Source: Mycobacteriales bacterium
GTDB taxonomy: Bacteria > Actinomycetota > Actinomycetes > Mycobacteriales > SCTD01
NCBI GenBank assembly: GCA_046262175.1
Contig: JBHENF010000071.1
Location: forward strand, 1 to 32,609
DNA: 32,609 nt
Reading direction: 5' to 3'
Under the pieces are notes generated by a model. The model worked only from the letters and a program-made list of their open reading frames with translations, made no database searches and was not told where the DNA came from. Shown here one piece after another: positions 3,759 through 30,091 of the stretch; the first letter of the stretch is position 1, and each line of letters opens with the position of its first letter. The position numbers were made by a program, and so were the translations under genes.

Positions 3759-5803
3759 TACACGAGCAGGCTGCGGGTGTTGCTGCGGCCAGGGGCGTTC
3801 GACAGGTCCTGACCGGTTCGGGCGACGAACCCGAACCGGCCGCTGCCGGTGAACGTCTTGCGGTACGCCCACTGCCCCGTGGTCGCGTCGGCCCGGGCCT
3901 GCGCCGCGAGCACCTCCGTGCCGTCAGCGGTCACCCGGTAGACCGTGACGATCAGCCCGCCGGGACGCGCCGGAACGCTGTCCCCGCTGAAGGTGTAGTC
4001 CCGGGTCCCGTTGCGAACCACGGCGATCGACAGCGTCGTCCGGACGTTCAGCACCACCGAGGCGCCTGCGGTGCAGCCACGCTGCTGGGCGTACAGCCGC
4101 GTGTTGGTCGCCGGGCGGATCGAGAAGGCGACGGTGCCGTCGCTCGTCACGGTCCCGGTGCGCACGAGGGCGTAGTCGCTCGCGGGCCGGCTGTACCCGT
4201 ACAGGTCAACGGTGCTGTTCTTGGCCGCGCTGACCACGACGTCGGCGAGCCCGGTCGCGTTGATGGTGTCGACCGGCAGGGACGTGATCGCGGTGGTGCA
4301 GGCGGGCCCGCGGGTGGGGCTGGGACTGGGGACCGGCGAGCCGTTGCCCTGCACGGTCAGTGTGCTGCTGTCCGTGCACCGCCCGCCGGGACTCTGGCAG
4401 GCAGTCGCCGCAGGGGTGCGCACTGCGACCGAGACGGCATCGGTGCCCTGCTCGGACGACGTCGTGACGACGGTGATGACGGCGGTGCCGCTCGCGTCCG
4501 TCGTCGCGCTCGACGTCGAGCTCCCGCCGCTGCCGAGGCTGCCGTTGACGATGCCGCCGGGTCCCGTCTCGCTGAAGCCGAGGCCGACGCCGGCGACGGG
4601 CACGCCGTTGTTGTCCGTCACCCGCGCCGTGAACTGCTGGCTCGTCCCGGCTGTGGCCGTCGCCGACTCCGGCGTCAGGTCCACGAAGCGGGCCGCCGAC
4701 ACAGGGGACGTCGTGGTCGCGCTGGCGGTGTCGTGCACCTCGCCCGGATCGAAACCGAGCGTCGGGTCGGCCGTGTGCGCCTTCGTCTGGTTGACCCAGA
4801 CGGTCAGCTGCTCCGTACCTGCCTTTGCCGTCGGAAACGTGCACGTGGCGATGCCGTCGTTGCCGCTGCGGGTGCAGGTCCCGCTGGTGCCGGCGGCGCT
4901 GCGGAGCAGGGGGATGACGCCGGCGACGCCGTCACCGCTCGCATTCGTCAGTCGGACGGCGAACGTGTGCGCGGCCCCGCCCTGCGGGGAGTACGACTGC
5001 TCGGGCGTGGCGACGAGGTTGACGATCGCGTCGGCCGCCTGCGGGGTGTCGGGCAGGCCGCCGGCGCTGAAGGAGACGTTCAGCGAGCGGGCGTAGTCGC
5101 CGCTGCTCTGCGTCTCGTCCCCGTCGGCGCTGCGGAAGACGTCGATGCGCGCACCCCCGGGGACGCGCCCGGCCACGCCGAACGTGACGGCGGTGCTGGC
5201 GCCGCTGCGCCCGTCGTACAGGTACACGGCCGTGTCCACGCCGCTCGGGTTGCTCGTCGCCGCGTCGGGCGTGTCAGCACCCGTCCCGGTGTCGGCGATG
5301 GAGGTCTTCGTCTTTGCCGTCGTGGCCGTGTCGGTGACGGTCGGGCCGGCGACGTAGAAGCGCTTGGCGGCGGTGCTGGTCAGGTAGTGCGGCGAGATGG
5401 CCGGCGTGCTGACCGCACCGGGGCGGCAGAAGTCGACGTCCTGCGCTGCGTCCGTGCTCGGTGTCTCGGTCAGGCGGATGACGACGGTGCCCGTGTCGGT
5501 GGCCGGACCGCCGAACGCGTCGACCGGCTGGACGGTGTACGTGAGGCACGCACCGGCCGCTCCCTGCGCGGGACCGCTGAGGCGGATGTCGCCCGTGGCT
5601 GCCGCGGAAGCGGGCGGAGTGATCAGCAGTGCGGCCCCCGTGGCCAATGCGGTGGCGGCAACGGCGAGGCGGCGGGACGACAGGCGCACGATGCGGCCCT
5701 TCGACGGGGGCGGGACGAGCGGACCGTAGCGACTGCCTGTGGCGGATGTGGCCTGTGTGACGTCATCGTGATCTGTCGGAGGTCGCGGGGAGGATGCCCG
5801 CAT
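3755..5803 (-). CDS. Secreted multi-domain protein with bacterial Ig-like (Big/invasin-type) repeats
   Basis: 682-aa ORF. A signal-like segment (SSRRLAVAATALATGAALLITPPASAAATG, possibly Tat-type RR) starts at residue ~40, so GTG 5689 (VRLSSRRL...) is a likely true start. At least three Ig-like modules are present, e.g. TATAGTSQQFTARVTDNNGVPVAGVGLGFSETGPGG...TDASGTAVITVV. There is a Pro/Ser linker (GSPVPSPSPT) and a C-terminal beta-rich region. Coding is confident; the product call is motif-based. Confidence 0.8.
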   Translation of the reverse strand: MRASSPRPPTDHDDVTQATSATGSRYGPLVPPPSKGRIVRLSSRRLAVAATALATGAALLITPPASAAATGDIRLSGPAQGAAGACLTYTVQPVDAFGGPATDTGTVVIRLTETPSTDAAQDVDFCRPGAVSTPAISPHYLTSTAAKRFYVAGPTVTDTATTAKTKTSIADTGTGADTPDAATSNPSGVDTAVYLYDGRSGASTAVTFGVAGRVPGGARIDVFRSADGDETQSSGDYARSLNVSFSAGGLPDTPQAADAIVNLVATPEQSYSPQGGAAHTFAVRLTNASGDGVAGVIPLLRSAAGTSGTCTRSGNDGIATCTFPTAKAGTEQLTVWVNQTKAHTADPTLGFDPGEVHDTASATTTSPVSAARFVDLTPESATATAGTSQQFTARVTDNNGVPVAGVGLGFSETGPGGIVNGSLGSGGSSTSSATTDASGTAVITVVTTSSEQGTDAVSVAVRTPAATACQSPGGRCTDSSTLTVQGNGSPVPSPSPTRGPACTTAITSLPVDTINATGLADVVVSAAKNSTVDLYGYSRPASDYALVRTGTVTSDGTVAFSIRPATNTRLYAQQRGCTAGASVVLNVRTTLSIAVVRNGTRDYTFSGDSVPARPGGLIVTVYRVTADGTEVLAAQARADATTGQWAYRKTFTGSGRFGFVARTGQDLSNAPGRSNTRSLLVY

Positions 5804-6503
5804 GTGCGACGTCGAGGGGTGCGGGAGGCCGCGATACGCGCGCGGGCTGTGCGGCCGGCACTACAAGCAGCAGCTCCGGCACGGGCAGGTGCAGCCGGAG
5901 AGCGAGCCGGCAGCCTGCTCCGTCGACGGGTGCGAGCGCGGGGCCGTCACGCGCGGTTGGTGCCACGGGCACTACCTGCGCTGGAGCCGTACGGGCGACG
6001 TCCGCCCGGAGGTGCCACTGACGCGGCCGGAGCGCGGCGCGTGCTCGGTCGACGACTGCGGGCGGCCACACGTCAGCGGCGGCCTGTGCGAGCCGCACCG
6101 CCAGCGCGTGCGGCTGACAGGCGAGCTGCAGCCCGAGCAGCCGCTGCGGCCCGCTCCGACGGGTGCGCACCACTCGCACGGGTACCGCCGGGTCGCGGTG
6201 CCGGCCGAGGACCGCTGGCTCGTGGACGGTGCGTCCGTGGCTCCCGAGCACCGCCTGGTGCTGGCCCGCCAGCTCCGGCGCCCGCTGCGTGCAGACGAGA
6301 GCGTGCACCACCGCAACGGCGTGCGCGACGACAACCGGCCGGAGAACCTGGAGCTCTGGTCGCGGTTCCAGCCGACCGGCGCACGGGTCGCGGACCTACT
6401 CGCGTACGCCTGGGAGCTGATCCATCGTCACGAGCCGGAGGCGGCGTTCATGCTTGGCCTGGACCTGGACCCGAGCACAGGACGACCCGGCTACACAATG
6501 TAG
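5802..6503 (+). CDS. HNH endonuclease with three N-terminal Cys/His-rich (zinc-ribbon-like) repeats
   Basis: ATG 5802 is preceded by GGGGAGGA 7 nt upstream. There are three repeats of C-x-V-[ED]-[GD]-C-x-R-x5-G-[LW]-C-x2-H (CDVEGCGRPRYARGLCGRHY, CSVDGCERGAVTRGWCHGHY, CSVDDCGRPHVSGGLCEPH). The C-terminal HNH core is EHRLVLARQL...VHHRNGVRDDNRPENLELW. Confidence 0.85.
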   Translation: MCDVEGCGRPRYARGLCGRHYKQQLRHGQVQPESEPAACSVDGCERGAVTRGWCHGHYLRWSRTGDVRPEVPLTRPERGACSVDDCGRPHVSGGLCEPHRQRVRLTGELQPEQPLRPAPTGAHHSHGYRRVAVPAEDRWLVDGASVAPEHRLVLARQLRRPLRADESVHHRNGVRDDNRPENLELWSRFQPTGARVADLLAYAWELIHRHEPEAAFMLGLDLDPSTGRPGYTM

Positions 6504-6508: not shown

Positions 6509-6521
6509 CCGTAACTCTGCG

Positions 6522-6594
6522 TACCCCCGATGGGATTCGAACCCACGCCGACGCCGTGAGAGGGCGCTATCCTAGGCCGCTAGACGACGGGGGC
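6522..6594 (-). tRNA. tRNA-Glu (anticodon CUC)
   Basis: Minus strand: GCCCCCGTCGTCTAGCGGCCTAGGATAGCGCCCTCTCACGGCGTCGGCGTGGGTTCGAATCCCATCGGGGGTA. It folds by hand into a cloverleaf: 7-bp acceptor stem, anticodon loop CU-CUC-AC, T-loop GGTTCGAATCC. 73 nt, CCA not encoded. Confidence 0.9.
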
Positions 6595-6639
6595 TTGCCT
6601 CGCGCTGTGCAGTTGTCCCAGTCGGAACCGGGCCGTGCG

Positions 6640-6711
6640 CTGGGGTACCTGGACTCGAACCAAGACTAACGGAACCAGAAACCGTCGGGCTGCCAATTAC
6701 CCCATACCCCA
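6640..6711 (-). tRNA. tRNA-Gln (anticodon CUG)
   Basis: Minus strand: TGGGGTATGGGGTAATTGGCAGCCCGACGGTTTCTGGTTCCGTTAGTCTTGGTTCGAGTCCAGGTACCCCAG. Acceptor UGGGGUA/UACCCCA, anticodon loop UU-CUG-GU, T-arm CTTGG-TTCGAGT-CCAGG. The gltX-tRNA-Gln-tRNA-Glu order is typical of actinobacteria. Confidence 0.9.
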
Positions 6712-8969: not shown

Positions 8970-10538
8970 CTAGTCGCCCCGGTGCAGCAGCCCAGCGGTG
9001 TACGCGTCCTCCAGCGCCTGCCAGGACGCCGCGATGACGTTCTCGTGCACGCCGACGGTGCTCCACTCGGTCACGCCGTCGGAGGTCTCGACGAGCACCC
9101 GCGTGACGGCGTCCGTGCCGTGCTCGCCGCTGACGATGCGCACCTTGTAGTCGACCAGCTCCATCGACGCGAGGTACGGGTAGAGCCGCTCCAGCGCCGA
9201 GCGCAGGGCATTGTCCAGGGCGTTCACCGGTCCGTTGCCCTCTCCGGTCGCGACGATCCGCTCCCCGTTGGCGTGCAGCTTCACCGTCGCCTCCGACACC
9301 ACCTGACCGTCTGTCCGGCGCTCGACGATGACTCGCCACGACTCCAGGTCGAAGTACGACGGACGCGCTCCCATCTCCTCGCGCAGCAGCAGCTCGAAGC
9401 TCGCCTCGGCAGCCTCGAACGAGTAGCCCACAGACTCGAGCTCCTTCACGCGCTCGATGACGCGTCCGACCGCCTCGCGGTCCGGCTCCAGACCGATCGC
9501 CCTGCCCTTCAGCTCGATGGTCGCGCGTCCGGCGAGCTCGGAGACCAGCAGCCTCATGTCGTTCCCCACCACCGCGGGATCGGTGTGCTGGTACAGGTCC
9601 GGGTCGGCCTTGATGGCGCTGACGTGCAGCCCGGCCTTGTGCGCGAAGGCGCTGGTGCCCACCCACGGCTGGTGCGCGTCCGGCGCGATGTTCGCCACCT
9701 CGGCAACGGCGTGCGCGACCCGGCCCAGCTCCGCCAGCCGCCCCTCCGGCAGGACCTGACGGCCGAGCTTGTCCTCCAGCGCCGCCACGACGCTGAACAG
9801 GTCGGCGTTGCCGGACCGCTCGCCGTACCCGTTCGCCGTCCCCTGCACGTGCGTCGCCCCGGCCTCGATTGCGGCCAGCGAGTTCGCGACGGCGCAGGAC
9901 GTGTCGTTATGCGCGTGGATCCCGACCCGCATCCCCGTACCCACGACCTCGTGCACGATCTCCGCCAGCCGCGTCGGCAGCATCCCTCCGTTGGTGTCGC
10001 ACAGCGCCACCACGTCTGCACCGGCCTCTGCCGCGACCCGCAGGACCTCGAGCGCGTACGCCGCGTCGGCGACGTAGCCGTCGAAGAAGTGCTCGGCGTC
10101 CAGGAACACCCGCTGCCCCTCCGCCTTCAGGTGCGCGACCGAGTCGCGGACCATCGCGAGGTTCTCCTCCCGCGTCGTCCGCAGCGCGCGCTCGACGTGC
10201 CGCACGTCCGACTTCGCGACCAGCGTGACGACGGGGGCACCGGAGTTCCGCAGGTGCGCGAGGTCCTCCACCACGTCGCCGCCGGCTCGCCGAGTCGACC
10301 CGAACGCCGTCAGCTGCGCCGTCTTCAGCACCAGCTCGCTCTGCGCCCGGCGGAAGAACTCAGCGTCCTTCGGGTTCGCGCCCGGCCACCCGCCCTCGAT
10401 GAACCCCACACCGAGGTCGTCGAGGTGCCGCGCGATCGCGAGCTTGTCGTTGACGGACAGCGACATCCCCTCGCGCTGCGCGCCGTCGCGCAGCGTCGTG
10501 TCGTACACGTGGAACGCGTCCGTGGGAACGGGTGTCAT
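8970..10538 (-). CDS. cimA: (R)-citramalate synthase / 2-isopropylmalate-synthase-family protein (LeuA-related, CimA type)
   Basis: Start taken at ATG 10538 (MTPVPTDAFHVYDTTLRDGAQREGMSLS...). The track start GTG 10574 lies inside the upstream U-tract. HMGL-like motifs are present (GIHAHNDTSCAVANSLAAIEAGATHVQGTANGYGERSGNA), with a C-terminal LeuA-dimer/regulatory-like region. The ~520-aa length and N-terminus fit the citramalate-synthase subgroup rather than the actinobacterial LeuA found at 18582. Confidence 0.88.
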   Translation of the reverse strand: MTPVPTDAFHVYDTTLRDGAQREGMSLSVNDKLAIARHLDDLGVGFIEGGWPGANPKDAEFFRRAQSELVLKTAQLTAFGSTRRAGGDVVEDLAHLRNSGAPVVTLVAKSDVRHVERALRTTREENLAMVRDSVAHLKAEGQRVFLDAEHFFDGYVADAAYALEVLRVAAEAGADVVALCDTNGGMLPTRLAEIVHEVVGTGMRVGIHAHNDTSCAVANSLAAIEAGATHVQGTANGYGERSGNADLFSVVAALEDKLGRQVLPEGRLAELGRVAHAVAEVANIAPDAHQPWVGTSAFAHKAGLHVSAIKADPDLYQHTDPAVVGNDMRLLVSELAGRATIELKGRAIGLEPDREAVGRVIERVKELESVGYSFEAAEASFELLLREEMGARPSYFDLESWRVIVERRTDGQVVSEATVKLHANGERIVATGEGNGPVNALDNALRSALERLYPYLASMELVDYKVRIVSGEHGTDAVTRVLVETSDGVTEWSTVGVHENVIAASWQALEDAYTAGLLHRGD

Positions 10539-10568
10539 CGGGTCGTCGCTCTCATGTGGGGCCTTCTG

Positions 10569-10605
10569 AAGCACGAAACCCCCCAGTCCCGAAGGGCATG
10601 GAGGG
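10569..10605 (-). terminator. Hairpin + U-rich tract between the GGDEF/EAL gene and cimA (terminator or attenuator)
   Basis: RNA sense: CCCUCCA-ug-CCC-uuc-GGG-ac-UGGGGGG followed by UUUCGUGCUU. That is 7 bp + 3 bp with a 2x2 internal loop. An upstream UCCCCAG (10613-10619) can alternatively pair with the same G-run. Confidence 0.45.
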
Positions 10606-10628
10606 TTGCGCGCTGGGGACGTCGGACG

Positions 10629-10667
10629 TCAGTCAGCGCGCCGGCGAATGATGGCGTACGTGGGCAC
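10629..10667 (-). promoter_or_regulatory. Candidate Ile-rich leader peptide ORF upstream of cimA (V/M-P-T-Y-A-I-I-R-R-R-A-D-stop)
   Basis: GTG 10667-10665 ... ATC ATT (10652-10647) ... TGA (10631-10629). The tandem Ile codons include the AT-rich ATT, which stands out in this GC-rich DNA. It lies 17 nt after the preceding stop and ~25 nt upstream of the hairpin/U-tract at 10569-10605. I see no obvious SD. Confidence 0.35.
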
Positions 10668-10684
10668 GCGGGCGAGCGTACCGC

Positions 10685-12973
10685 TCAGACGAGCTCGACC
10701 CCGGCGGTCGCTGCCCGTGGCGACGGCACGACGATGCGACCACCGTCGCCCGCCAGCAGCGCCGGCACGTCCTGCGGCAGCAGCGGCCGGCCGAACAGGA
10801 ACCCCTGCCCGTACTGGCAGCCGAGTCCCTCGACGACGGCGAGCTGGCCCCGCGTCTCGATCCCCTCGGCGACCGTGCGCAGGCCGAGCCGGCTCAGCAG
10901 GCCGAGCACCGCGTCCGCGAGCGCCAGCGCAGCCGGGTCACGATCGACGCCCTCCAGCAGCCCGCGGTCGAGCTTCACGAAGTCGAACGGCAGCCGCTTG
11001 AGGTAGCGCAGCGAGGAGAAGCCCGCACCGAAGTCGTCCATCGCAAGCCGGATCCCGAGGTCGCGCAGCCGCTGCAGCACCGAGACCGTGTCGCGGTCAT
11101 CGTCGACGAGCACCGACTCGGTCAGCTCCAGCACCAGCCGCCGGGGCGGCAGGCCCGTGTCGGACAGGACCTGCGCGACCCGCTCCACAAGGTCGGGCAC
11201 GTGCAGCTGGACCGCCGACAGGTTGACGCTGACCGTCAGCCGGCGGTGCTCCGGATGGTCGGCGTGCCATCGGCGCAGCTGGGTGCACGCCTCGCGCATG
11301 ACCCACTCGCCTATGTCGTTGATGAGGCCGCTCTCCTCGGCCAGCGGGACGAACAGCAGCGGGCTCAGCTCACCGCGCGTCGGGTGGTTCCAGCGCAGCA
11401 GCGCCTCCAGGCCGACCACGCGCTGCGTCGGCACGTCCACGACCGGGTGGTACCGCAGGGAGAGCTCATCGTCCGCCAGCGCGGTCCGCAGGTCCTCGGC
11501 CAGCTCGGCGCGCTCCAGCACCGCCACGCGCATCGGGGGCTCGAAGACCTGGAATCGGCCCTTGCCGCCGGCCTTGGCGGCGTACATCGCGATGTCCGCG
11601 TCGCGCAGGGCGGTATCGGGTCCGGTCGCGCGCGGGTGCGCGATGCCGATGCTGCAGCCGAGCGTCACCTCCCGCTCGCCCAACGAGAACGGGTCGCTGA
11701 GGACCCGCAGCAGCCGCTTCGCGAGCGGCTCCACCCGGTCTTCGCCGTCCGCCACCAGGACGACGAACTCGTCTCCGCCGAGCCGCACGACGAGGTCGTT
11801 GGGCCGGCAGCTGCGACGGATCCGCTGGCCGACCTGCTGCAGCACGGCGTCGCCGGCCGCGTGGCCGAGCGTGTCGTTGACGCCCTTGAACCCGTCCAGG
11901 TCGAGCAGCAGCAGCGCCGCCGGCACGCGCGCGTCCGACTCCAGCCGCTCGCGCAACGCGCCGCGGTTGGCGAGCCCGGTCAAGGGGTCGGTGTAGGCAG
12001 CCGTGCGCAGCTCCTGCTCGAGCAGGGCGCGCTCGGTGACGTCGACCATCGCGCCGATGTAGCCGAAAGCAGTTCCGTCCGGGTGGCGCAGCACCGCGCT
12101 GGACATCTCGACCTCGACGTCCGTGCCGTCCTTGCGCGCGCGCCGGGTGATCGCGCGGTGCACGACCTCGCCGCGGCTGAGCTCCGCCATGCGCTCCGCG
12201 TAACCCTCGGCGTCGACGGTCGGGTTGAGCCGGCCGAGGACCTCGTCAGCCGTCCAGCCGAACATCTCCTCCGCGGCCGGGTTCCACAGCCGCACCTGCC
12301 CCTGCAGGTCGAGCTCGAGGATGGCCACGGGCGCCTCGGTCACAAGCGCGGTGAGCCGGCCCACGATCCGCTCGCGGTCGGCATCGCGGGTAACGAGCGC
12401 CGTGTGCAGCGAGGCGTTCTCGATGGCGACGCTCGCCTGCGCGGCGTACATCTCGAGCAGCTGGAGCTGCTCGGCTCCCGGCCGACGGCCGTCGCGCGGC
12501 AGGTCGACGCTGATCGTGCCGACCAGGCCGGAGCGGGACGTCGTGAGCGGCGCGATCAGAGCGTCCAGCGGGTGCCAGGCGTCCTCGTCAGCGCTGACGG
12601 GCCGGTCAGGGACCCAGGTGGGAACGGCCGCGTCGTCGTGGGACTGCCGGCGGTAGTCGACGAGGACGTCGCCCGCCGGGGTGCACTCGCGGAGCCACCG
12701 GTCCCACTCCTCGCGGCTGCCCCGACCGCCCATGAGGGTGTCGCGTGCCTCGTCCGAGCCGGCGACCGCCACCACCTCGAGGTCTCCGTCCGGCATCACC
12801 AGGTTGACGACGGCCACCTCGAAGCCGAGGCCGTCCACGACACCGCGGGCGACGGCGTCCAAGGTGCGCTCGAGGTCGAGGTCGCCGTTGATGCCGCGCA
12901 CGAGGGTGTGCAGCCGTCGCAGGGAGGCCTCGCGCGCAGCGGTCAGCGCGATATCACCCCCGGGACCGGTCAC
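10685..12973 (-). CDS. GAF-PAS-GGDEF-EAL signalling protein (c-di-GMP synthase/phosphodiesterase)
   Basis: Start taken as GTG 12973 (VTGPGGDIALTAAREASL...), which avoids overlap with the upstream gene. Features: N-terminal GAF-like region; PAS (VRLWNPAAEEMFGWTADEVLGR); intact GGDEF (RLGGDEFVV) with an RxxD I-site (RPND) 5 residues upstream; EAL motifs intact (EALLRW, DDFGAGFSSL, EGIE, QGF). Confidence 0.9.
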   Translation of the reverse strand: MTGPGGDIALTAAREASLRRLHTLVRGINGDLDLERTLDAVARGVVDGLGFEVAVVNLVMPDGDLEVVAVAGSDEARDTLMGGRGSREEWDRWLRECTPAGDVLVDYRRQSHDDAAVPTWVPDRPVSADEDAWHPLDALIAPLTTSRSGLVGTISVDLPRDGRRPGAEQLQLLEMYAAQASVAIENASLHTALVTRDADRERIVGRLTALVTEAPVAILELDLQGQVRLWNPAAEEMFGWTADEVLGRLNPTVDAEGYAERMAELSRGEVVHRAITRRARKDGTDVEVEMSSAVLRHPDGTAFGYIGAMVDVTERALLEQELRTAAYTDPLTGLANRGALRERLESDARVPAALLLLDLDGFKGVNDTLGHAAGDAVLQQVGQRIRRSCRPNDLVVRLGGDEFVVLVADGEDRVEPLAKRLLRVLSDPFSLGEREVTLGCSIGIAHPRATGPDTALRDADIAMYAAKAGGKGRFQVFEPPMRVAVLERAELAEDLRTALADDELSLRYHPVVDVPTQRVVGLEALLRWNHPTRGELSPLLFVPLAEESGLINDIGEWVMREACTQLRRWHADHPEHRRLTVSVNLSAVQLHVPDLVERVAQVLSDTGLPPRRLVLELTESVLVDDDRDTVSVLQRLRDLGIRLAMDDFGAGFSSLRYLKRLPFDFVKLDRGLLEGVDRDPAALALADAVLGLLSRLGLRTVAEGIETRGQLAVVEGLGCQYGQGFLFGRPLLPQDVPALLAGDGGRIVVPSPRAATAGVELV

Positions 12974-13010
12974 ACGTCGTGCATCGGCAGGTATGGCCCG
13001 AAGGTGAACG

Positions 13011-14243
13011 TCATCCCTGGTCCCGCACCCACGCGGCGATGAGCCCCCGGTAGTGCGCAACGAACTGCTCGTGCTCGTGCGGCGGGAAGGTCGCGCGCAC
13101 GGTCTCGACGAGCAGCCGGTCGAAGTCGGTCGAGGCGAAGTAGTCGACGGCGATCCGGTCGAAGTCGGCGAGCTGCGTACGGCAGAACTCGTCGTACTGA
13201 TCCTGCTGGAAGTACTCGTCGGCGAGCCGCCGGTAGGCGACGAGCTTGTCCTCGTAGGAGCCCGGCGCGTCCGCCACGTCGTACCAGCGGCGCATATCGA
13301 GGTCGATGCGCGGGCGTCGGCCGGTCGCGGTGCAGAACAGCGACCACTTCACCAGGGCCTTCATCGCCCACGGGAAGTAGTAGTGCAGCGACGTGATCGC
13401 GACGTCGGGGCAGGCGTTGGCGTAGTCGATCGGGCAGACCTGCCCGTCGCGCACGAGCGTCTCGCAGGAGTTGAACTCCCACGTGAAGAACGCGTTCACG
13501 ATCTTGCCGATCGTGACGACCTCGTCCCCGACCTCCGGCTCGAGGAAGGCGTGGTCGACGCTGTAGCGGTCGTGCATCGGCCGGTCCGGCGCGAACTTCA
13601 TCACCATCGTCTCGGCACCGATCGAGAGCGACCGCGCGAAGACGTCGAAGCCTTCGACACTGGCCTGCAGGTGCATCAGCCGCTGGCCGCTCTCGTCGTA
13701 CGCCTGCCGCAGCTCGGCGGAGTCGCGGATCCGGGTGACGCCGACCCAGGCGCCGCCGTCGTACGGCTTCATGTACAGCGGGTAGCCGACCTGCTCGGCC
13801 ACCTCCGCGATGTCGAACTGCTGGTTGTACTTCGCCGCGGTGTACGGGAACCGCGGGTTGTCCGGCGGCTGCTTGTGCGGCACGAGCCAGGTCTCGGGCA
13901 CCTTGAGCCCCAGCCGGATCATCGCGCAGTACGCCGCGTGCTTCTCCATCGACTGGAACGTGAACGGGTTGTTGAGCAGGTACGTGTCGTCCATCAGGGC
14001 GACCTTCTTCAGCCACTCGCGCGGCACGTAGTACCAGTAGGCGAGGCGGTCGACGACGAGGTCGTAGCGGCTCGCCTGCCGCAGGTCGAACGGCTCGATC
14101 GTGATCCGCTCGACGTCGTAGCGGTGCGTCTGCCCGCCGACCTGCAGCGCCGGGTCGTAGCGACGGACGAGCTGCTCGAAGGCGCCGGGCCAGTCCTCCT
14201 CGGTGCCGAGGAGCAGGCCCAGCAGGTGGCGGGTGTCGCTCAT
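13011..14243 (-). CDS. ATP-grasp-fold ligase-like protein, uncharacterised (RimK/glutathione-synthetase-like)
   Basis: 410-aa ORF with no signal peptide. The central region looks like an ATP-grasp (GLKVPETWLV..., VGYPLYMKPYDGGAWVGVTRIRDSAELRQAY, ...CETLVRDGQVCPIDYANACPD). The ~100-aa C-terminal helical extension is unassigned. Coding is confident; the family call is by eye. Confidence 0.8.
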   Translation of the reverse strand: MSDTRHLLGLLLGTEEDWPGAFEQLVRRYDPALQVGGQTHRYDVERITIEPFDLRQASRYDLVVDRLAYWYYVPREWLKKVALMDDTYLLNNPFTFQSMEKHAAYCAMIRLGLKVPETWLVPHKQPPDNPRFPYTAAKYNQQFDIAEVAEQVGYPLYMKPYDGGAWVGVTRIRDSAELRQAYDESGQRLMHLQASVEGFDVFARSLSIGAETMVMKFAPDRPMHDRYSVDHAFLEPEVGDEVVTIGKIVNAFFTWEFNSCETLVRDGQVCPIDYANACPDVAITSLHYYFPWAMKALVKWSLFCTATGRRPRIDLDMRRWYDVADAPGSYEDKLVAYRRLADEYFQQDQYDEFCRTQLADFDRIAVDYFASTDFDRLLVETVRATFPPHEHEQFVAHYRGLIAAWVRDQG

Positions 14244-14255
14244 GCGGGAACCCTC

Positions 14256-14996
14256 TCAGACGAAGCGGGGCAGGTGGTACGAGATCTGCGCGCGCCAGGA
14301 CGGCCAGTCGTGCGGCACGTCGTAGCCCCAGATGTCGGTCTCGACGCGCAGCCCCTTCGACCCGCACAGGTCGCTGAAGTCCAGCGTGCTCTGCAGCGCC
14401 CCCGTCGTGTCCTCCCACATCCCCTGCCCGGCGACGAGCAGCAGGGACAGCCGGGTCTGCAGCCACTCCAAGTGGTCGCCGCCGAGCCCGCTGACCGACG
14501 ACATCGGGTTGTTGAACCAGAAGGAGTCGCCCTGGTGTCCCCAGCCGAGGACCTGCAGGTCGTAGACGCCGGACAGACCGATCGCCAGCGGGAACAGGTC
14601 TGCGTGCCGCAGCGCGGCGTTGACGGCGTGGTAGGCCCCGAAGCTGCAGCCGGTGAGGACCATCTCCTGGCGGCCGCCGCAGTCCGCGTCGACGTACGGG
14701 ACGACGCCGTCGACGACCCACCGCTCGTACGCCTCGTGCCGCTGCGCGCGCTCCTCGAGCGGCAGGTCGTGCCGGTACCAGGACCCGCCGTCCCACGAGT
14801 CCAGGCAGTACAGCTTCAGGCGGCCCTCGTCCACCAGCGGTCGCAGCGCGTCGACCATGCCGTTGTTCTCGTAGTCCTCCGCGCGACCCTCGCTGCTCGG
14901 GAAGACGAGCACCGGCCGGCCGTGCGAGCCGTACGCGATCACGCGCGGCGACCAGCCGAGCTCCGGCGACCACAGCTCGGTGACGTCCCGCCTCAC
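14256..14996 (-). CDS. Esterase-family alpha/beta hydrolase (PF00756-like), cytoplasmic
   Basis: 246 aa. The GTG start overlaps the upstream stop (GTGA at 14993-14996). The nucleophile elbow G-C-S-F-G sits in LTGCSFGAYHAVNAAL. No signal peptide. It ends 12 nt before the ATP-grasp gene. Confidence 0.85.
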   Translation of the reverse strand: MRRDVTELWSPELGWSPRVIAYGSHGRPVLVFPSSEGRAEDYENNGMVDALRPLVDEGRLKLYCLDSWDGGSWYRHDLPLEERAQRHEAYERWVVDGVVPYVDADCGGRQEMVLTGCSFGAYHAVNAALRHADLFPLAIGLSGVYDLQVLGWGHQGDSFWFNNPMSSVSGLGGDHLEWLQTRLSLLLVAGQGMWEDTTGALQSTLDFSDLCGSKGLRVETDIWGYDVPHDWPSWRAQISYHLPRFV

Positions 14997-16015
14997 TGCA
15001 GGACCCGCCGGACGAGGTCCACGAGGTTGGGGTCGAACGTGTCGCGCCAGCCGGTATAGGTGTGCACGTCGCGGTTCTCGACCAGGCGCGTGTCATAGCC
15101 CTGCGCGCCCAGGGCGCGGGTCATGAGCCGGTTGTTCTCGACGTTCTCCTCGATCAGGCCGCAGGTCAGGACGACGGGAACCGGGTCGACGGCCGGGCCG
15201 GCGCGCAGCACGCTGTCGACGAACGCCGTGATGCGCTGGAAGCGCTCGAACCCGCTCTCCTGCTCGTCGAGCACGCGATGGAAGAAGCTGCTGCTCTGCA
15301 GGTACAGCCCGGCGAACGTGCCCGGGTGGTGGCGCTGCGCGTGCAGCATCGCGAGGCCGCCGAGGCTCGCGCCCATGCCCATCGTCACGGTCGCCGGAGC
15401 CACCTCGTGCAGCTTGGGCACGACGCCCAGCGCCAGCGCGCGGGAGTACGGCGCGGACGCGGAGTAGGTGGAGTTGCGGTCCACCGGCGCGAGGAGGGCG
15501 GCGCGCATCGCCGGCAGCCGGCCGACCGCGACCATCGCGTCGAGGAACAGCGTCAGCGAGGCCAGCGCGTCGTACTCCGGACCGTCGTGCACGACGAGCA
15601 GCGGCAGCGGCTCGGACGGGGCACTGTCGACGGACGACCACAGGACGCCGGGCACCTCCTGGTCCAGCGCGCGGGTCGGCAGCGACAGCTCCTGCCGCTC
15701 CCCGCGCGCCGGCTCGGCCTGCAGCCACTCCGGCACGCAGTAGCCCGGCAGCTCCAGCACCGACTTGTCGCCGAACGCGCCGCCGACCCGGTTCGGGTTG
15801 ACGGGGTCGCAGACCCACTCGCTGCCGTCGGCGTGCTGGAGCTCGAAGGAGTACTCCATCCGGTCGACGTCCGGGCGCGGCACGGTCAGCACCCAGTCGT
15901 CGCCGTCACGGGTGAAGCCGAGGGCGTCGCCCGGCAGCCGCACGTCCTGCTGCAGGCGCACCCCGCTGTACGTCCGGTGCGGGTCGGGCATGCGGAAGGT
16001 CACGGTCTCGGTCAT
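14993..16015 (-). CDS. Esterase-family alpha/beta hydrolase with N-terminal beta-sandwich (E-set/CBM48-like) domain, enterochelin-esterase-like architecture
   Basis: True start ATG 16015 (MTETVTFRMPDPHRTYSGVRLQQD...; 340 aa). The first ~95 aa look like the Ig-like N-domain seen in Fes-type esterases. Then come LLVVHDGPEY and the nucleophile elbow G-A-S-L-G (GMGASLGGLAML). No signal peptide. The 97-aa upstream extension in the track is an artefact overlapping the CBS gene. Confidence 0.85.
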   Translation of the reverse strand: MTETVTFRMPDPHRTYSGVRLQQDVRLPGDALGFTRDGDDWVLTVPRPDVDRMEYSFELQHADGSEWVCDPVNPNRVGGAFGDKSVLELPGYCVPEWLQAEPARGERQELSLPTRALDQEVPGVLWSSVDSAPSEPLPLLVVHDGPEYDALASLTLFLDAMVAVGRLPAMRAALLAPVDRNSTYSASAPYSRALALGVVPKLHEVAPATVTMGMGASLGGLAMLHAQRHHPGTFAGLYLQSSSFFHRVLDEQESGFERFQRITAFVDSVLRAGPAVDPVPVVLTCGLIEENVENNRLMTRALGAQGYDTRLVENRDVHTYTGWRDTFDPNLVDLVRRVLQ

Positions 16016-16028
16016 CGCGCCGGGAACC

Positions 16029-16421
16029 CTACGTGGCGGGCGGTCCGCCCCGCTCGGTCCAGGCCCGCAGCACGTCGCGCACCGAGAGCACGCCGACCAC
16101 CTCCTGGTCGTCGCAGACGACGAGGTGCCGGAACCCGCCGGACAGCATCGTCTGCGCCGCTCGCAGGAGGTCCCAGTCGGGAGACGCGACGACGGCGTCG
16201 GGGGTGAGGTGTGCGGACGCCGGCTCGGTGTCCGGATCCTGACCCTGCGCGACCGCCTCCAGGACGTCGCGCTCTGTGAGGATGCCGGGACCGTCGGAGT
16301 CGGCATCGAGGACGACGGCCGCGCCGACCTTGCGCGCGGCCATCGTCTGCGCCACCTGGCGAACCGTGTGGGTGGGGCCGACCTGCACGACGGTCGGGCT
16401 CATGACGTCCCGGACGAGCAC
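16029..16421 (-). CDS. Stand-alone CBS-domain pair protein
   Basis: 130 aa. GTG start with AGGAGG 5 nt upstream. Two CBS motifs are present (VMSPTVVQVGPTHTVRQVAQTMAARKVGAAVVLD...GILTERDVL; ...AAQTMLSGGFRHLVVCDDQEVVGVLSVRDVL). Confidence 0.85.
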   Translation of the reverse strand: MLVRDVMSPTVVQVGPTHTVRQVAQTMAARKVGAAVVLDADSDGPGILTERDVLEAVAQGQDPDTEPASAHLTPDAVVASPDWDLLRAAQTMLSGGFRHLVVCDDQEVVGVLSVRDVLRAWTERGGPPAT

Positions 16422-16448: not shown

Positions 16449-17528
16449 CTAGACCACCCGGTGGACCCAGCCGCGGGTGTCTTCCGTCCGGCCGTACTGG
16501 ATGTCGAGCAGCGCGTTGCGCAGCTTCGTCGTCACCTCGCCGGGCTCGCCGTCGCCCGCGACCGCTTCGCCGCCGGGCCAGCGGAGCGCGCCCACCGGCG
16601 TGATGACCGCAGCCGTACCGCAGGCGAACACCTCCACGACCGAGCCGTCGACCGCACCCTTGCGCCACTCGTCGACGTCCACCTTGCGCTCCTCGACCTC
16701 GTGCCCCAGCTCGCGGGCGAGGGTGATGACGCAGTCGCGGGTGACGCCTTCGAGGATGGTGCCGCTGAGCGCCGGGGTGACGAGGCGCCCGTCGTCCATG
16801 ACGAGGAACAGGTTCATGCCGCCCAGCTCCTCGATCCAGCGCTGCTCGAGCGCGTCGAGGAAGACGACCTGGTCGCAGCCGTTGTCCGCCGCCTCCTGCT
16901 GCGCGACCAGCGACGCCGCGTAGTTGCCACCCGTCTTCGCCGCACCCATGCCTCCTGGGGCGGCCCGCGTGTACTCCTGCGAGAGCCACAGCGAGACCGG
17001 GCGCAGCGGGCCGGGGAAGTAGTTGCCGGCCGGCGAGGCGATGACCATGAACTGCGCGCTGTCGCTCGGCCGGACGCCCAGGCCGACCTCGTCGGCGAAC
17101 ATGAACGGCCGCAGGTAGAGCGACGCGCCCTCGCCGTCGGGGACCCAGTCCTTGTCCGTTCGTACGAGCAGCTCGCAGGCCGCGACGAAGTCGTCCTCGG
17201 GGAACACCGGCAAGGCGAGCCGCTGGCACGAGCGGACCATCCGCGCGGCGTTCTTCTCGGGTCGGAACATGGCCACGCCGCCGTCGGGCTGCCGGTACGC
17301 CTTGAGCCCCTCGAAGACCTCCTGCGCGTAGTGCAGGACGACGTTGGCCGGGTCCATGCTGAGCGGCCCGTACGGGACGAGGCGGCCGTCGTACCAGCCG
17401 GCGTCGCGGGTCCACCGGACGCTGACCATGTGGTCGGTGAACACGCGCCCGAAGGCAGGGGCGGCCAGCACCTTCGCGCGCGCCTCGGCGTCCACCGGCG
17501 TCCCGGTCGGCTGCAGCTCGAACTCCAC
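16449..17528 (-). CDS. ilvE: Branched-chain amino acid aminotransferase
   Basis: 359 aa, class-IV aminotransferase of the long actinobacterial type (FTDHMV, EVFEGLKAYR, GGMGAAKTGGNYAAS). Confidence 0.95.
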   Translation of the reverse strand: MEFELQPTGTPVDAEARAKVLAAPAFGRVFTDHMVSVRWTRDAGWYDGRLVPYGPLSMDPANVVLHYAQEVFEGLKAYRQPDGGVAMFRPEKNAARMVRSCQRLALPVFPEDDFVAACELLVRTDKDWVPDGEGASLYLRPFMFADEVGLGVRPSDSAQFMVIASPAGNYFPGPLRPVSLWLSQEYTRAAPGGMGAAKTGGNYAASLVAQQEAADNGCDQVVFLDALEQRWIEELGGMNLFLVMDDGRLVTPALSGTILEGVTRDCVITLARELGHEVEERKVDVDEWRKGAVDGSVVEVFACGTAAVITPVGALRWPGGEAVAGDGEPGEVTTKLRNALLDIQYGRTEDTRGWVHRVV

Positions 17529-20392: not shown

Positions 20393-21850
20393 CTACCTGG
20401 CGGTGACGGACACGGTGTTCGAGCGCGAGCTGGTGTTGCCGGCGGCATCGCGAGCCGTCACGAAGTAGCTGTAGCTACGACCGCTCTTGAGGCCGTTGTT
20501 GGTGAGACTGGTGCCTGTCACCGTCGCGATCACGGCATACGACGTGCTGGAGCCGGTTGCCCGCCAGACGTCGTACGCGGTGACGCCCACGTCGTCGCCG
20601 GCGGCGCGCCAGCTCAAAGCGGCGCTCCGGCTGCCGGCGGCGCCGGTCAGGCCGGTGGGCGCGGTCGGTGGCATGGTGTCGGCAGCCGGCGGCGGTGCGG
20701 ACCCGCCGCTCGCTGCGATGCGGGCCGCGACGTCGCTGCGCACGGCAGGGAGGCCGGAGTAGAAGGTGCCGCCCGGACACTCCGTCGAGCCGTAGTCACG
20801 GTGACCGCCGATGTTGGCGGTGGTGATGACGCTGCCGCTCACCGGGTTGGTGAAGGACGCGGTCGCCTGCGGGTCGATGCCGTTGCGATCGGCCTCCCAC
20901 GCCAGCACGTCCTCGAGCGCGCTCTTCGCCGCCGGAGTCGCGTCCTGGTTGGTCAACGTGCCCAGCAGCGCGATGCCGACGGTTCCGCTGTTCCAGCCAG
21001 AGGTGTGTGCACCGGTGACGCCGCGACCGAGGGCGTCGTCGCCGCTCGGGGAGACCCCCGCGGCGTAGTCGCGCGAGTGCCGTCCCTCGTAGACCTTGCC
21101 GGTCTCGTCGACGAGGAAGTTGTAGCCGATGTCGCCCCAGCCCTGGGTGACGCAGTGGTAGTAGTAGATCGACCGGATCCGCGACTGCACGGTAGCCGGA
21201 TCGGTCTCGCCGTTCGGCGTGTCCGTGTGGTGGACGACCAGCTTCTTGCTGGCGTAGAAGGTCGTCGGCCACGTCTCGACGCCGTTCTTGAACCGAAGGC
21301 TCTCGTCCGCCCCCCAGCCGGCGCGGGAGAGCACGCCGGGTTGCGGCACGGCAGCAGACGCGGTCGCCTCGACCCGGTGGCGGGTCGCCGTGCGGGCCCC
21401 GTCGCGCATGCCCAGCACCGACACGCGGGCCAGAACCCGGTCGCTGGTCACCCGCACGGCGACCGCGCCGGCGGCCGACCGGATCGCGCCGTACGTCACC
21501 CCGTTGTGGCGCTGCTCACCGGCCTCGTCCCGACCGGCGTCGACGGGCGCGCGAAAGGTCACCCCGTCAGCGCTGAAAGCGAGGCTGACCCGGGCGGCCG
21601 GCGCCCCGCGCCAGTACGCCGCCACGTCCGCGGCCCGGGCGGGCAGTCGCAGCACCACGGAGCGGACGGCTGTGGCGGACGCGGTGTGGGCGTCGGTGCG
21701 CACCGAGACGGAGGTGGCGAAGGCCGCCGGCTGCGCGAGCAGGAGCCAGCTGAGTGGGACGGCGGCGGCGAGCACGACGGCGGTACGACGGGGCACGGGG
21801 AACCTCAGGACTGGGCCGAACGGACGAGCGCCAGTGTCCGGTATCGACAT
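20393..21850 (-). CDS. Secreted N-acetylmuramoyl-L-alanine amidase (Amidase_2/PGRP domain) with unassigned N-terminal domain and C-terminal fibronectin type III domain
   Basis: True start ATG 21850 (MSIPDTGARPFGPVLRFPVPRRTAVVLAAAVPLSWLLLAQPAAFA signal). Amidase_2 features: VVHHTDTPN, GWGDIGYNFLVDETGKVYEGR, GHRDYGSTECPG. The FN3-like tail is PTAPTGLTGAAGSRSAALSWRAAGDDVGVTAYDVWR...YSYFVTARDAAGNTS. Confidence 0.85.
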   Translation of the reverse strand: MSIPDTGARPFGPVLRFPVPRRTAVVLAAAVPLSWLLLAQPAAFATSVSVRTDAHTASATAVRSVVLRLPARAADVAAYWRGAPAARVSLAFSADGVTFRAPVDAGRDEAGEQRHNGVTYGAIRSAAGAVAVRVTSDRVLARVSVLGMRDGARTATRHRVEATASAAVPQPGVLSRAGWGADESLRFKNGVETWPTTFYASKKLVVHHTDTPNGETDPATVQSRIRSIYYYHCVTQGWGDIGYNFLVDETGKVYEGRHSRDYAAGVSPSGDDALGRGVTGAHTSGWNSGTVGIALLGTLTNQDATPAAKSALEDVLAWEADRNGIDPQATASFTNPVSGSVITTANIGGHRDYGSTECPGGTFYSGLPAVRSDVAARIAASGGSAPPPAADTMPPTAPTGLTGAAGSRSAALSWRAAGDDVGVTAYDVWRATGSSTSYAVIATVTGTSLTNNGLKSGRSYSYFVTARDAAGNTSSRSNTVSVTAR

Positions 21851-21881
21851 CGAGATACCAATGGTCCGAACTGACCAGTTG

Positions 21882-22727
21882 TCAGACCAGGACCTCGCGG
21901 ACCGCTTCGGCGAAGGCGGCGGGCTCGTCCACCCACGGGAAGTGGCCGGCGCGCGGCAGGACGACGACCCGGGCACCGTCGAAGCTGGCGGCGACCGCGT
22001 GCGCCGCGGCGACTCCCGTCAGCGCGTCGCGCTCTCCCGCGAGAACGAGGACCGGGGCGGTCACCTCGCGCAGGCCGCCGAGCAGGGCCGCGACGTCGAC
22101 ATCCTCCTCGCGCGCCGGCCGGAAGCCCAGCTCGGCGCGCTTGCTCGTCTGCGTCTCCGCGGTCGCCGCGTGCGCCTGCGTCCGCTCGTCCCACCTGCCG
22201 TACATGAAGGGCCGGGCCGCCCGCCACAGCTGCTGCTGGATCTGCGGCGGCGCGGTCTCCAGCGCGTCCAGCGCCTCACGAGCCTCGGCGTACCAGGGCT
22301 CGTCCGCGCGCGCGGCGACCAGCTGAGCGACATCGGTCCGGTCGCTCCCCTGCAGCCGGCCGCTCGGCGTCACGAGCACCAGGGCGTCGACGCGATCCGG
22401 GTGCGCGGACGCCCACGCCTGCGCGACCATCGTCCCGGCGGAGTGGCCGAGCAGCGCGAGCCGCTCCTCGCCCAGGTGGACGCGCAGCGCCTCCACGTCC
22501 TCCGCGAGCCGGTCGAAGCGCAGCGACGCGGGATCGGCCGGCACCTCGCTGCGGCCGGTGGCGCGGCTGTCGAGCAGCACCAGCGTCCGGTCGGTGGACA
22601 GCCCGCCGAGGTCCTCCAGGTACGCGGCCGCGCGTCCTGGGCCGCCGGGCAGGCACACCAGCGGCGGCCCGCTGCCGACCTCGGCGTAGGACAGCCGCGT
22701 CCCGTCGTACGAGGAGAAGGTCGTCAC
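21882..22727 (-). CDS. Alpha/beta hydrolase (proline-iminopeptidase-like fold)
   Basis: 281 aa. The GTG start overlaps the serA stop (GTGA 22724-22727). Features: oxyanion-region LPGGPG, nucleophile elbow G-H-S-A-G (LLGHSAGTMVA), and C-terminal AGHFPWVDEP. Confidence 0.85.
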   Translation of the reverse strand: MTTFSSYDGTRLSYAEVGSGPPLVCLPGGPGRAAAYLEDLGGLSTDRTLVLLDSRATGRSEVPADPASLRFDRLAEDVEALRVHLGEERLALLGHSAGTMVAQAWASAHPDRVDALVLVTPSGRLQGSDRTDVAQLVAARADEPWYAEAREALDALETAPPQIQQQLWRAARPFMYGRWDERTQAHAATAETQTSKRAELGFRPAREEDVDVAALLGGLREVTAPVLVLAGERDALTGVAAAHAVAASFDGARVVVLPRAGHFPWVDEPAAFAEAVREVLV

Positions 22728-24313
22728 GCGAGGTCGACGGACCGGGCGCTGGTGGCCCCGATGGCTGCGGCGATGTCGTCGAGCACGGCGCTCGGCACAG
22801 CGCTGTCGACCGTGAGCGCCATGAGCGCGTCCCCGCCCTGCGCGGTGCGGCTCACCTGAGCGCCGGCGATGTTGACGGCGGCCTCCCCCAGGGCGGCACC
22901 GACACGGCCCACGACGCCGGGCTGGTCGGCATAGCGGAAGAACAGCAGGTGCTCGCTCGCCGGCAGGTCGACGTCGAAGCCGTCGACGGAGGTCAGCTTC
23001 TCGACCTGGCGGGTGCCGGCGAGGGTGCCCGAGACCTCGACCGCCTCCCCCGTCGGCAGCACGCCGCGCAGGGTCAGCAGGTTGCGGTAGTCGGGGCTGT
23101 CGGCGTCCGTCGTCAGCGACACCTCCAGGCCGCGCTCGGCGGCGAGCGCCGGCGCGTTGACGAAGGTCACTGCCTCCTCGACCACGTCGGCGAAGACGCC
23201 CTTCAGGGCGGCGAGCTGCAGGACCGAGACGTCGTACGCCGCGATCTCTCCCCGCACCTCCACCTCGAGCGTCGACGCGACGTGACCGGCGAGCGCCGTG
23301 AACACGCGGCCGAGCTTCTCGACGAGCGGAAGCGCCGGCCGCAGCTCGGGCACGACCGCTCCGCCGGCCTGGACGTTGACCGCGTCCGGCACGAAGTCGC
23401 CTTCGAGCGCGAGCTTCACCGACCGGGCGACGGCGATGCCGGCCTTGTCCTGCGCCTCAACGGTCGAAGCGCCGAGGTGCGGCGTCGCGACGACGCTGTC
23501 GAACTCGAACAGCGGCGAGTCCGTGCACGGCTCGGTCGCGAAGACGTCGATGCCGGCGCCGGCGACGTGCCCGCTCTTGAGCGCCTGCGCGAGCGCGTGC
23601 TCGTCGACGAGGCCGCCACGCGCCGCGTTGACGAATCGGACGCCCGGCTTGCACGTGGCGAGCTCCTTCTCGCCGATGAGGCCAACGGTCTCGGGCGTCT
23701 TCGGCAGGTGGATGGAGATGAAGTCGCTCTCGCGCAACAGCTCGTCCAGCGGCACCAGGCGGACGCCTATCTGCGCGGCGCGCGCCGGCTGGACGTACGG
23801 GTCGTAGGCCAGCAGCCGCACGCCGAACGCGGACATGCGCTGGGCGAACAGCACGCCGATCCGGCCGAGCCCGACGACGCCCACCGTCTTGTCCGCGACC
23901 TCGACGCCGGTCCACTTCGAGCGCTCCCACTTGCCGGCCTTGAGCGCTGCGCTGGCCGGGGCGATGTTGCGAGCGCAGGCGAGCAGCAGGGCGACTGCCT
24001 GCTCGGCGGCGCTGACGATGTTGGACTGCGGCGCGTTGACGACCATGACGCCGCGCGCGGTCGCCGCCGGAACGTCGACGTTGTCGAGGCCGATGCCGGC
24101 GCGCGCGATGACCTTGAGCCGTGGCGCGGCGGCCAGCGCCTCCTCGTCGATCTGCGTGGCGCTGCGGATCAGGACGGCGTCCGCGTCGGCCAGCGCCGGC
24201 AGCAGCGCGGCCCGATCCGCCCCGTCGCAGCTGCGGATGTCGAAGCCGTCGCCGAGCACGGCGACCACGGACGGAGCGAGCTCCTCGGCGATGAGCACGA
24301 CGGGCTGGGTCAC
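22724..24313 (-). CDS. serA: D-3-phosphoglycerate dehydrogenase (long type with ASB and ACT domains)
   Basis: True start GTG 24313 (VTQPVVLIAEELAPSVV...; 529 aa). NAD-binding motif GVVGLGRIGVLFAQR, a catalytic region ending in HLGAST, and a C-terminal ACT-like domain are present. The 913-aa track ORF extension is an artefact. Confidence 0.95.
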   Translation of the reverse strand: MTQPVVLIAEELAPSVVAVLGDGFDIRSCDGADRAALLPALADADAVLIRSATQIDEEALAAAPRLKVIARAGIGLDNVDVPAATARGVMVVNAPQSNIVSAAEQAVALLLACARNIAPASAALKAGKWERSKWTGVEVADKTVGVVGLGRIGVLFAQRMSAFGVRLLAYDPYVQPARAAQIGVRLVPLDELLRESDFISIHLPKTPETVGLIGEKELATCKPGVRFVNAARGGLVDEHALAQALKSGHVAGAGIDVFATEPCTDSPLFEFDSVVATPHLGASTVEAQDKAGIAVARSVKLALEGDFVPDAVNVQAGGAVVPELRPALPLVEKLGRVFTALAGHVASTLEVEVRGEIAAYDVSVLQLAALKGVFADVVEEAVTFVNAPALAAERGLEVSLTTDADSPDYRNLLTLRGVLPTGEAVEVSGTLAGTRQVEKLTSVDGFDVDLPASEHLLFFRYADQPGVVGRVGAALGEAAVNIAGAQVSRTAQGGDALMALTVDSAVPSAVLDDIAAAIGATSARSVDLA

Positions 24314-30060: not shown

Positions 30061-30091
30061 GGGCTTGCTTCCTTCGGACTGCGTGGGCAAC

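Follow-up and report, generated by a model that had tools for sequence, protein, structure and literature searches.

A ligase/hydrolase logic comparable to that proposed for the locus described here is found in RimK/RimB, in GshB together with glutathione-thioester hydrolases, and in CphA/CphB. RimK acts on S6 and TTL on tubulin, the S51 and MATCAP families are known as peptidases whose substrates arise by ATP-grasp-type ligation (cyanophycin, tubulin tyrosination), and some ATP-grasp enzymes form esters, VanA and the graspetide ligases among them. The locus in question lies on contig JBHENF010000071.1 of a Mycobacteriales bacterium (assembly GCA_046262175.1), the window being the whole stretch of 32,609 nucleotides that was analysed, and comprises two genes for esterases of the PF00756 family, est1 and est2, followed by the gene for an ATP-grasp ligase. 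This triad is conserved across several classes of Actinomycetota and, with a probability of roughly 0.55, represents a self-contained ligase/hydrolase module acting on a putative small, peptide-like substrate.

The triad resembles CphA/CphB in that the gene for an ATP-grasp-type ligase has beside it one for a serine hydrolase by which the ligation could be reversed. The analogy with cyanophycin synthetase and cyanophycinase had been drawn in the first-pass annotation of this DNA, and it gains some support from Peptidase_S51 genes that directly precede distant homologues of the ligase in three contigs; membership in that system fails for the window itself, since the ligase lacks a Mur-ligase domain and does not match the CphA model (TIGR02068), no S51 gene is present, the hydrolases are PF00756 alpha/beta proteins instead of S51 proteins, and a polymer product is putative. 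RimK is among the best structural matches of the ligase, the order of the N-x8-K, KP-G-G and Mg-site-like motifs appears to be the same when the motifs are read along the two proteins, and an EAL protein is adjacent in the window, as RimA is in Pseudomonas; unlike RimK, however, the ligase stays below the RimK family cutoff and carries an additional C-terminal helical domain, the hydrolases are unrelated to RimB, and the EAL neighbour is not conserved. The three superfamilies of the glutathione system (a GshA-type ligase, GshB, and esterase D/S-formylglutathione hydrolase) co-occur in 18 of the 80 loci surveyed below, whereas in the window the GCS2-like protein is absent, est1 is Fes-like and not FrmB-like, the match of the GCS2-like protein to PF04107 is weak, and a thiol is unsupported. 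With regard to graspetide systems, the intergenic gaps of the operon are of -4 to 13 nt and no conserved flanking family occurs among open reading frames (ORFs) of at least 100 aa, shorter precursor genes falling outside that clustering; a survey of graspetides does not cover the ligase family, and no literature on this family or on the operon was found. Outside the graspetide comparison, family-level membership fails throughout; what holds is the placement in the ATP-grasp superfamily and in PF00756, together with the Fes-type fold that est1 shows.

Conservation and gene partners of the triad

In a scan of one genome per species, at least 600 stretches were matched, and relatives of the ligase are encoded in at least 582 species-level genomes. 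The 80 best loci (L001-L080), biased to close homologues, were analysed by comparing seven window proteins with them by tblastn and then counting strict adjacency in the 76 loci with enough upstream sequence; contigs around more distant ligase homologues, which bear P numbers, are labelled L081-L088, L091 and L093. The genes est1, est2 and the ligase gene occur in the same order and on the same strand in 58 of the 76 loci, est2 and the ligase gene in eight more, est2 thus lying directly upstream of the ligase gene in 66, and the ligase gene lacks upstream esterases in the other ten. Whether the three genes are conserved as neighbours had been set beforehand as a check on the system, and the answer is clearly positive. 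The carriers belong to Frankiales, Geodermatophilaceae, Pseudonocardia, Actinophytocola, Nonomuraea, Virgisporangium, Propionibacteriaceae and Jiangellaceae, as well as to Solirubrobacterales, Gaiellales (Gaiellaceae), Acidimicrobiia (Acidimicrobiaceae) and Euzebyales (Euzebyaceae), the conservation spanning at least four classes of Actinomycetota.

The flanking genes of the window behave differently. The gene for a CBS-pair protein, ilvE and cimA adjoin the triad in no loci other than L001-L003, the three closest relatives, with proteins that share 83-93% identity with those of the window, and the gene for a GGDEF-EAL protein only in L001 and L002, being absent in L003, where cimA directly follows the ligase gene; in the other 77 loci the triad stands in unrelated contexts. 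Clustering across the loci of 1067 ORFs of at least 100 aa, filtered by G+C content at third codon positions (GC3), placed no other family at a fixed position beside the triad, the filter having dropped some true genes (est2 in 40 loci, vs 66 by tblastn). Since these adjacencies are limited to the closest relatives and no other family holds a fixed position, the conserved unit is the triad. The functional unit is, as predicted from these comparisons, the three-gene operon est1-est2-ATP-grasp, and the five-gene block that the first-pass annotation had put forward as a system is not such a unit. By the same comparisons, the CBS, GGDEF-EAL and branched-chain amino acid (BCAA) genes are predicted to be lineage-specific neighbours acquired in one Frankiales-like lineage, and the control by a CBS ligand or by cyclic di-GMP (c-di-GMP) and the link to BCAA genes that had been proposed along with the block therefore lean on adjacency confined to this lineage.

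Other genes recur near the triad in part of the loci. In 18 of the 80 loci, a GCS2-like protein of ~500 aa, with a weak PF04107 match (E ~1e-7), a mean column identity of 77% and no match of its profile in the PDB, is encoded at most ~1.1 kb from the triad (L041:9258-10829, minus strand; also L021, L023, L028, L035, L046, L049, L052 and others). Its gene is mostly convergent just after the ligase gene, with the exception of L005 and L008, where it is divergent from est1, and of L042, L061 and L075, where it is co-directional; because the adjacency survives rearrangement, a functional link with the triad is suggested, and the protein represents an uncharacterised family and probably belongs to the same pathway. 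ATP-grasp paralogues, between one and three in number, occur in eleven loci, seven of which have two or three, and the representatives scanned match L-amino-acid-ligase (LAL)/PRK02186-type models. Two to three such LAL-type paralogues lie near the ligase gene, together with est1-like and est2-like genes, in L028 (11766-15582), L021, L042, L080, L070 and L071, and L028 also encodes an M20 dipeptidase; such clusters are a larger, multi-ligase variant of the locus that either lacks the upstream esterases or has them displaced. A group of metagenome-assembled genomes of unclassified Actinomycetota (L011, L018, L032, L044, L055, L057 and L067) encodes an ABC-2-type transporter pair (ATPase and permease), identified by reading the sequences and not by family search, immediately before est1 and in the same direction, at ~1.8-2.7 kb upstream of the ligase gene.

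Among the more distant homologues, whose partners were counted in one to three contigs each, a hydrolase remains the partner of the ligase but its family varies, and a number of these partners are from peptidase families. An est1-like gene overlaps the start of the ligase gene by 4 nt for P0125 (46% identical to the window ligase; L086), and a Peptidase_S51 protein of 460-490 aa is encoded directly upstream for P0141, P0164 and P0166 (36-41%; L087, L088 and L091). P0160 (36%; L093) shares its gene string with a 417-aa PF00756 protein and two HEAT-repeat proteins, P0148 (38%; L081) has a convergent gene for a MATCAP-family (PF08014) protein, and P0206 (32%; L082-L085), from a low-G+C organism, has no hydrolase partner in its contigs. 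The S51 genes, of the cyanophycinase/PepE family, lie at L087:5305-6765, L088:5540-6934 and L091:2-406. Genes for DUF3806 and HEAT-repeat proteins are divergent in L087 and L088, and HEAT-repeat proteins also flank the ligase homologues in L082-L085 and L093.

The ligase and the paired hydrolases

In scans of Pfam and NCBIfam no model reaches its cutoff on the ligase, nor does any on 21 family members scanned one by one. The best Pfam match is Dala_Dala_lig_C (21.3 bits vs a cutoff of 24, residues 140-187), TIGR01205 attains 19.2 bits vs a cutoff of 245, and RimK, GshB and LysX models, as well as TIGR00768, are not among the matches listed for the window ligase in either collection. In PDB searches, with a single sequence or with a profile, only the GYPLYMKP..G..GV strand aligns, to the ATP-binding strand of D-Ala-D-Ala ligase (Ddl), biotin carboxylase and RimK, and no close solved relative was returned. 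This strand is the only similarity to Ddl (PF07478) detectable by sequence; unlike in a true Ddl, the match covers ~45 residues, stays below the cutoff and stands in no cell-wall gene context. The earlier view of the ligase as lacking a characterised match is in agreement with these searches.

The AlphaFold2 model of the ligase (predicted local distance difference test, pLDDT, 72; predicted template modelling score, pTM, 0.75) retrieves with Foldseek RimK, Ddl, LysX/ArgX and L-amino acid ligase, at a probability of 1.00, E-values down to 1e-7 and a target-normalised template modelling (TM) score of ~0.5. By this three-domain alpha+beta fold, the protein is a predicted member of the ATP-grasp superfamily, in which a core of ~280 residues is followed by a C-terminal helical domain of ~130 residues that has no counterpart in the RimK, Ddl, LysX/ArgX or LAL matches. 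In an alignment reaching down to 28% identity, R66, G112, T118, P160, Q193, R204, G209, R226, D273 and D280 are invariant and K101, K159, N258, E261 and N276 nearly so; as far as motifs can be read, the residue order matches that of RimK/Ddl-type enzymes (N-x8-K, KP-G-G, and an acidic residue followed by D/E-x-N), the ATP-grasp motifs being conserved in the family alignments. Residues 66-95 (DRLAYWYYVPREWLKKVALMDDTYLLNNPF) form the most conserved segment and are yet modelled at a pLDDT below 50; they may be a partner- or substrate-binding element that becomes ordered only in a complex.

The family is large, with more than 8000 database homologues, all named 'hypothetical' or 'ATP-grasp domain-containing', and 273 clusters of a 50%-identity library at E<=1e-30 to the ligase. 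Beyond the three closest relatives, in several classes, identity to the window proteins is 66-72% for the ligase, 49-63% for est2 and 45-59% for est1. On present models the family is an unclassified one, within the ATP-grasp superfamily and outside every Pfam and NCBIfam family model scanned.

The start codon of est1 is supported by a 340-aa database protein with 100% identity to it, and all 25 members of the est1 family match PF00756. When the family profile was compared with the PDB, Fes of Shigella was found (2b20, E=1.8e-17); the aligned part begins at the end of the N-terminal domain and extends across the catalytic domain, and the nucleophile Ser and the C-terminal His correspond between the two. 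In the AlphaFold2 model (pLDDT 83) residues 1-90 are all-beta and are followed by an alpha/beta-hydrolase domain, in accordance with the E-set/CBM48-like beta-sandwich anticipated for the N-terminus, and the best Foldseek matches are Fes structures (2b20, 3c87 and 3mga, TM 0.66-0.70) and next CBM48-CE1 feruloyl esterases. The two-domain architecture, the fold, the GxSxG Ser and the C-terminal His are all as in Fes/IroD; unlike these, est1 shows ~20% identity to them, reaches 47.5 bits on the Fes equivalog NF007758 vs a cutoff of 222, has no siderophore gene context, and is paired with a paralogous esterase and an ATP-grasp enzyme. The single-domain est2 gives weak profile matches to PS1 mycoloyltransferase and CE1 esterases, and hhalign pairs it with est1 at a probability of 84% and an identity of 19%, their Ser and His coinciding; est2 and the catalytic domain of est1 are distant paralogues.

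The nucleophile elbows GASLG (Ser217, est1) and GCSFG (Ser118, est2), whose integrity had already been pointed out, are invariant in 25-member family alignments, and the catalytic-type residues Ser217, His318 and E289/E290 of est1 and Ser118, His229 and E195/D196 of est2 are invariant or nearly so; both proteins look, by these residues, catalytically competent. Direct reading of the sequences finds no hydrophobic N-terminus in est1, est2 or the ligase, in line with the lack of signal peptides in the original description, and est1 is a predicted cytoplasmic, two-domain, Fes-like serine hydrolase.

The window and its gene map

The window has a G+C content of 72% and carries, on the minus strand, an actinobacterial BCAA cluster, in which leuD, leuC, gltX, a FAH-family gene and cimA lie on one side of the block and ilvE, leuB, leuA, ilvC and ilvB on the other, as expected from the BCAA supercluster described at first. 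Between cimA and ilvE there are five co-directional genes (Table 1).

Table 1. Features of the window discussed in the text (positions in nucleotides of the window)
Feature	Positions	Strand	Basis or content
Two frames, of 701 codons (-) and 243 codons (+)	3755-6503	- and +	Weak Big_1 Ig-like match (701 codons); HNH_3 endonuclease motif (243 codons)
tRNA-Glu(CTC)/tRNA-Gln(CTG)	6521-6711		Rfam
cimA	8970-10574	-	
110-nt stretch upstream of cimA	10575-10684		No Rfam family at gathering threshold
GAF-PAS-GGDEF-EAL protein	10685-12973	-	Pfam domains
ATP-grasp ligase, 410 aa	13011-14243	-	Fold and motifs; sub-cutoff D-Ala-D-Ala ligase C-terminal match
est2, PF00756 esterase, 246 aa	14256-14996	-	PF00756, 39.9 bits (cutoff 22)
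est1, PF00756 esterase, 340 aa	14993-16015	-	PF00756, 22.0 bits, exactly the cutoff (22)
Stand-alone CBS-pair protein, 130 aa	16029-16421	-	PF00571, E=1.7e-23, two stretches
ilvE	16449-17528	-	
Amidase_2 (N-acetylmuramoyl-L-alanine amidase) and fibronectin-III protein	20393-22018	-	
1483-codon frame	22208-26659	+	No Pfam match
PAP2 and GT87 glycosyltransferase fusion	29811-32090	+	Stop-to-stop frame

Read from the sequence, the junctions are of 27 nt from ilvE to the CBS gene, 13 nt from the CBS gene to est1, -4 nt between est1 and est2, where the GTG start of est2 overlaps the est1 stop (GTGA), 12 nt from est2 to the ligase gene, and 37 nt from the ligase gene to the GTG at 12973; the tight packing described for the block is thereby confirmed in all four of its internal gaps. 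The c-di-GMP enzyme is dual-domain and has, as had been described, an intact I-site, with RPND five residues before GGDEF and with GGDEF and EAL both intact. Between 10400 and 18800 a scan detected nothing promoter-like and a single terminator-like site, which lies inside ilvE and corresponds to the chance level. Rfam identifies in the window two tRNAs only, so that the leader assumed upstream of cimA corresponds to no known family, and the PADLOC defence models match none of the five block proteins. The ligase gene is lower in G+C (0.67 vs ~0.72); horizontal transfer was considered as the cause and rejected, the GC3 being 0.97 and the drop falling in codon positions 1 and 2.

Elsewhere in the window, the two frames at 3755-6503 lie between the IclR/leuC region and the tRNA genes just downstream of gltX, and the region could be a small insertion beside tRNA genes. 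The Amidase_2 and fibronectin-III gene is inserted in the BCAA cluster beside leuA. The 1483-codon frame, situated between leuA and ilvC, may or may not be a real gene, because its GC3 of 0.82 is below the 0.90-0.95 of its neighbours. The PAP2-GT87 gene is divergent from ilvB, and its stop-to-stop frame runs into the 5' end of ilvB, so that the true start must be located further downstream.

Candidate reactions of the triad

Under the preferred reading of the triad as a ligase/hydrolase module, the ATP-grasp enzyme would activate a carboxylate as an acyl-phosphate and join to it an amino group, most likely that of an amino acid, a hydroxyl being less likely; this would yield a small, peptide-like compound or a short oligomer in the cytoplasm, and the translationally coupled est1 and est2 would cleave amide or ester bonds in that product or in its precursor. 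The type of bond, a substrate common to the three proteins, and an opposing as against a feeding role of the hydrolases are all to be read as putative. In favour of this scheme are the conserved order and strand of the triad, the 4-nt overlap and 12-nt gap, the RimK/Ddl-type motifs kept at 28-45% identity, the invariance of Ser, His and an acidic residue in both hydrolases, the persistence of a hydrolase partner in distant homologues, and the neighbours related to peptide metabolism. Several points weigh on the other side. The enzymatic activity of the triad is predicted and its substrate putative; the model of the ligase is only moderate, and poorest in residues 66-95, and the putative Mg ligands E261, D273 and N276 derive from motif position without residue-level superposition. 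The nearest structural relatives of est1 (Fes and feruloyl esterases) are ester hydrolases and not peptidases, so the bond could be an ester, or the hydrolases could act on something other than the ligase product. The window has none of the GCS2-like, LAL-type, M20, S51 and MATCAP neighbours, each of which is confined to a minority of loci, and making and breaking one bond within one operon would be futile without regulation.

This last difficulty is avoided if the proteins act in sequence, est1 and est2 freeing a carboxylate or amine from an esterified or acylated precursor, in salvage or catabolism, and the ATP-grasp enzyme conjugating it to an amino acid. A gene order with the hydrolases first and the ligase last, translationally coupled, agrees with such a pathway, as does the ABC-2-type transporter pair directly upstream of est1 in one locus group; nevertheless, the transporter association is limited to one lineage, and the S51 and MATCAP partners of distant homologues, being peptidase families, better fit an opposing pair, which makes the sequential pathway an unlikely, if reasonable, alternative. 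The target might instead be a protein, the ligase adding amino acids to the C-terminus or a side-chain carboxylate of a conserved protein and est1 and est2 serving as erasers. The place of RimK among the best structural matches, the higher identity between classes of the ligase (66-72%) vs the esterases (45-63%), the MATCAP-family protein adjoining one homologue and the HEAT-repeat proteins recurring beside distant ones can all be cited for it, whereas clustering of ORFs of at least 100 aa revealed no conserved candidate target gene in the actinobacterial loci, the ligase falls below the RimK cutoff and outside the listed TIGR00768 matches, and Fes-like alpha/beta hydrolases are not known as protein C-terminal peptidases; protein tailing is accordingly regarded as rather less likely still than action in sequence.

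The two remaining explanations are considerably weaker. That the CBS sensor and the c-di-GMP enzyme control the ligase/hydrolase system within a five-gene unit tied to BCAA biosynthesis would agree with the gaps of 13-37 nt, with the lack of a terminator-like site between the genes, with the recurrence of the arrangement in L001 and L002, and with the precedent of RimABK, which joins an EAL protein with an ATP-grasp enzyme. The RimA model NF052265 is nevertheless a weak match (88 bits vs a cutoff of 430), only the three closest relatives have CBS, ilvE and cimA next to the triad, two of them with GGDEF-EAL and one without it, and the remaining loci differ in context, so that a regulated five-gene unit is held to be improbable. 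Siderophore-type chemistry, in which the triad would assemble and hydrolyse an enterobactin-like, ester-linked oligomer, is prompted by the closeness of est1 to Fes in both sequence profile and fold and by the precedent for ester formation among ATP-grasp enzymes; it had also been among the analogies offered at the outset. However, est1 remains far under the Fes equivalog cutoff, and neither non-ribosomal peptide synthetases (NRPS), NRPS-independent siderophore (NIS) synthetases, TonB/ABC or other siderophore-uptake families nor iron-regulation families are among the recurrent neighbours in the 80 loci, and a siderophore role is therefore considered very improbable, the least probable of the explanations weighed here.

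Returning to the module reading, a wider and much more tentative proposal is that the triad works with the ATP-grasps of amino-acid-ligase type and the GCS2-like ligase clustered with it in other genomes, and that together they make and turn over an undescribed cytoplasmic peptide of Actinomycetota, such as a gamma-glutamyl or aspartyl oligopeptide or a peptide cofactor of low molecular weight, or else a peptide tail reversibly attached to a conserved protein, the Fes-like hydrolases being the dedicated erasers. The alternative partners (GCS2-like, LAL-type, M20, S51 and MATCAP-family) point to peptide chemistry. The CBS, c-di-GMP and BCAA embedding is incidental to the triad, and the unit for experiment is narrowed from five genes to three. 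A widespread and strongly constrained enzyme that is tied to two hydrolases suggests an unrecognised part of core actinobacterial metabolism or protein modification.

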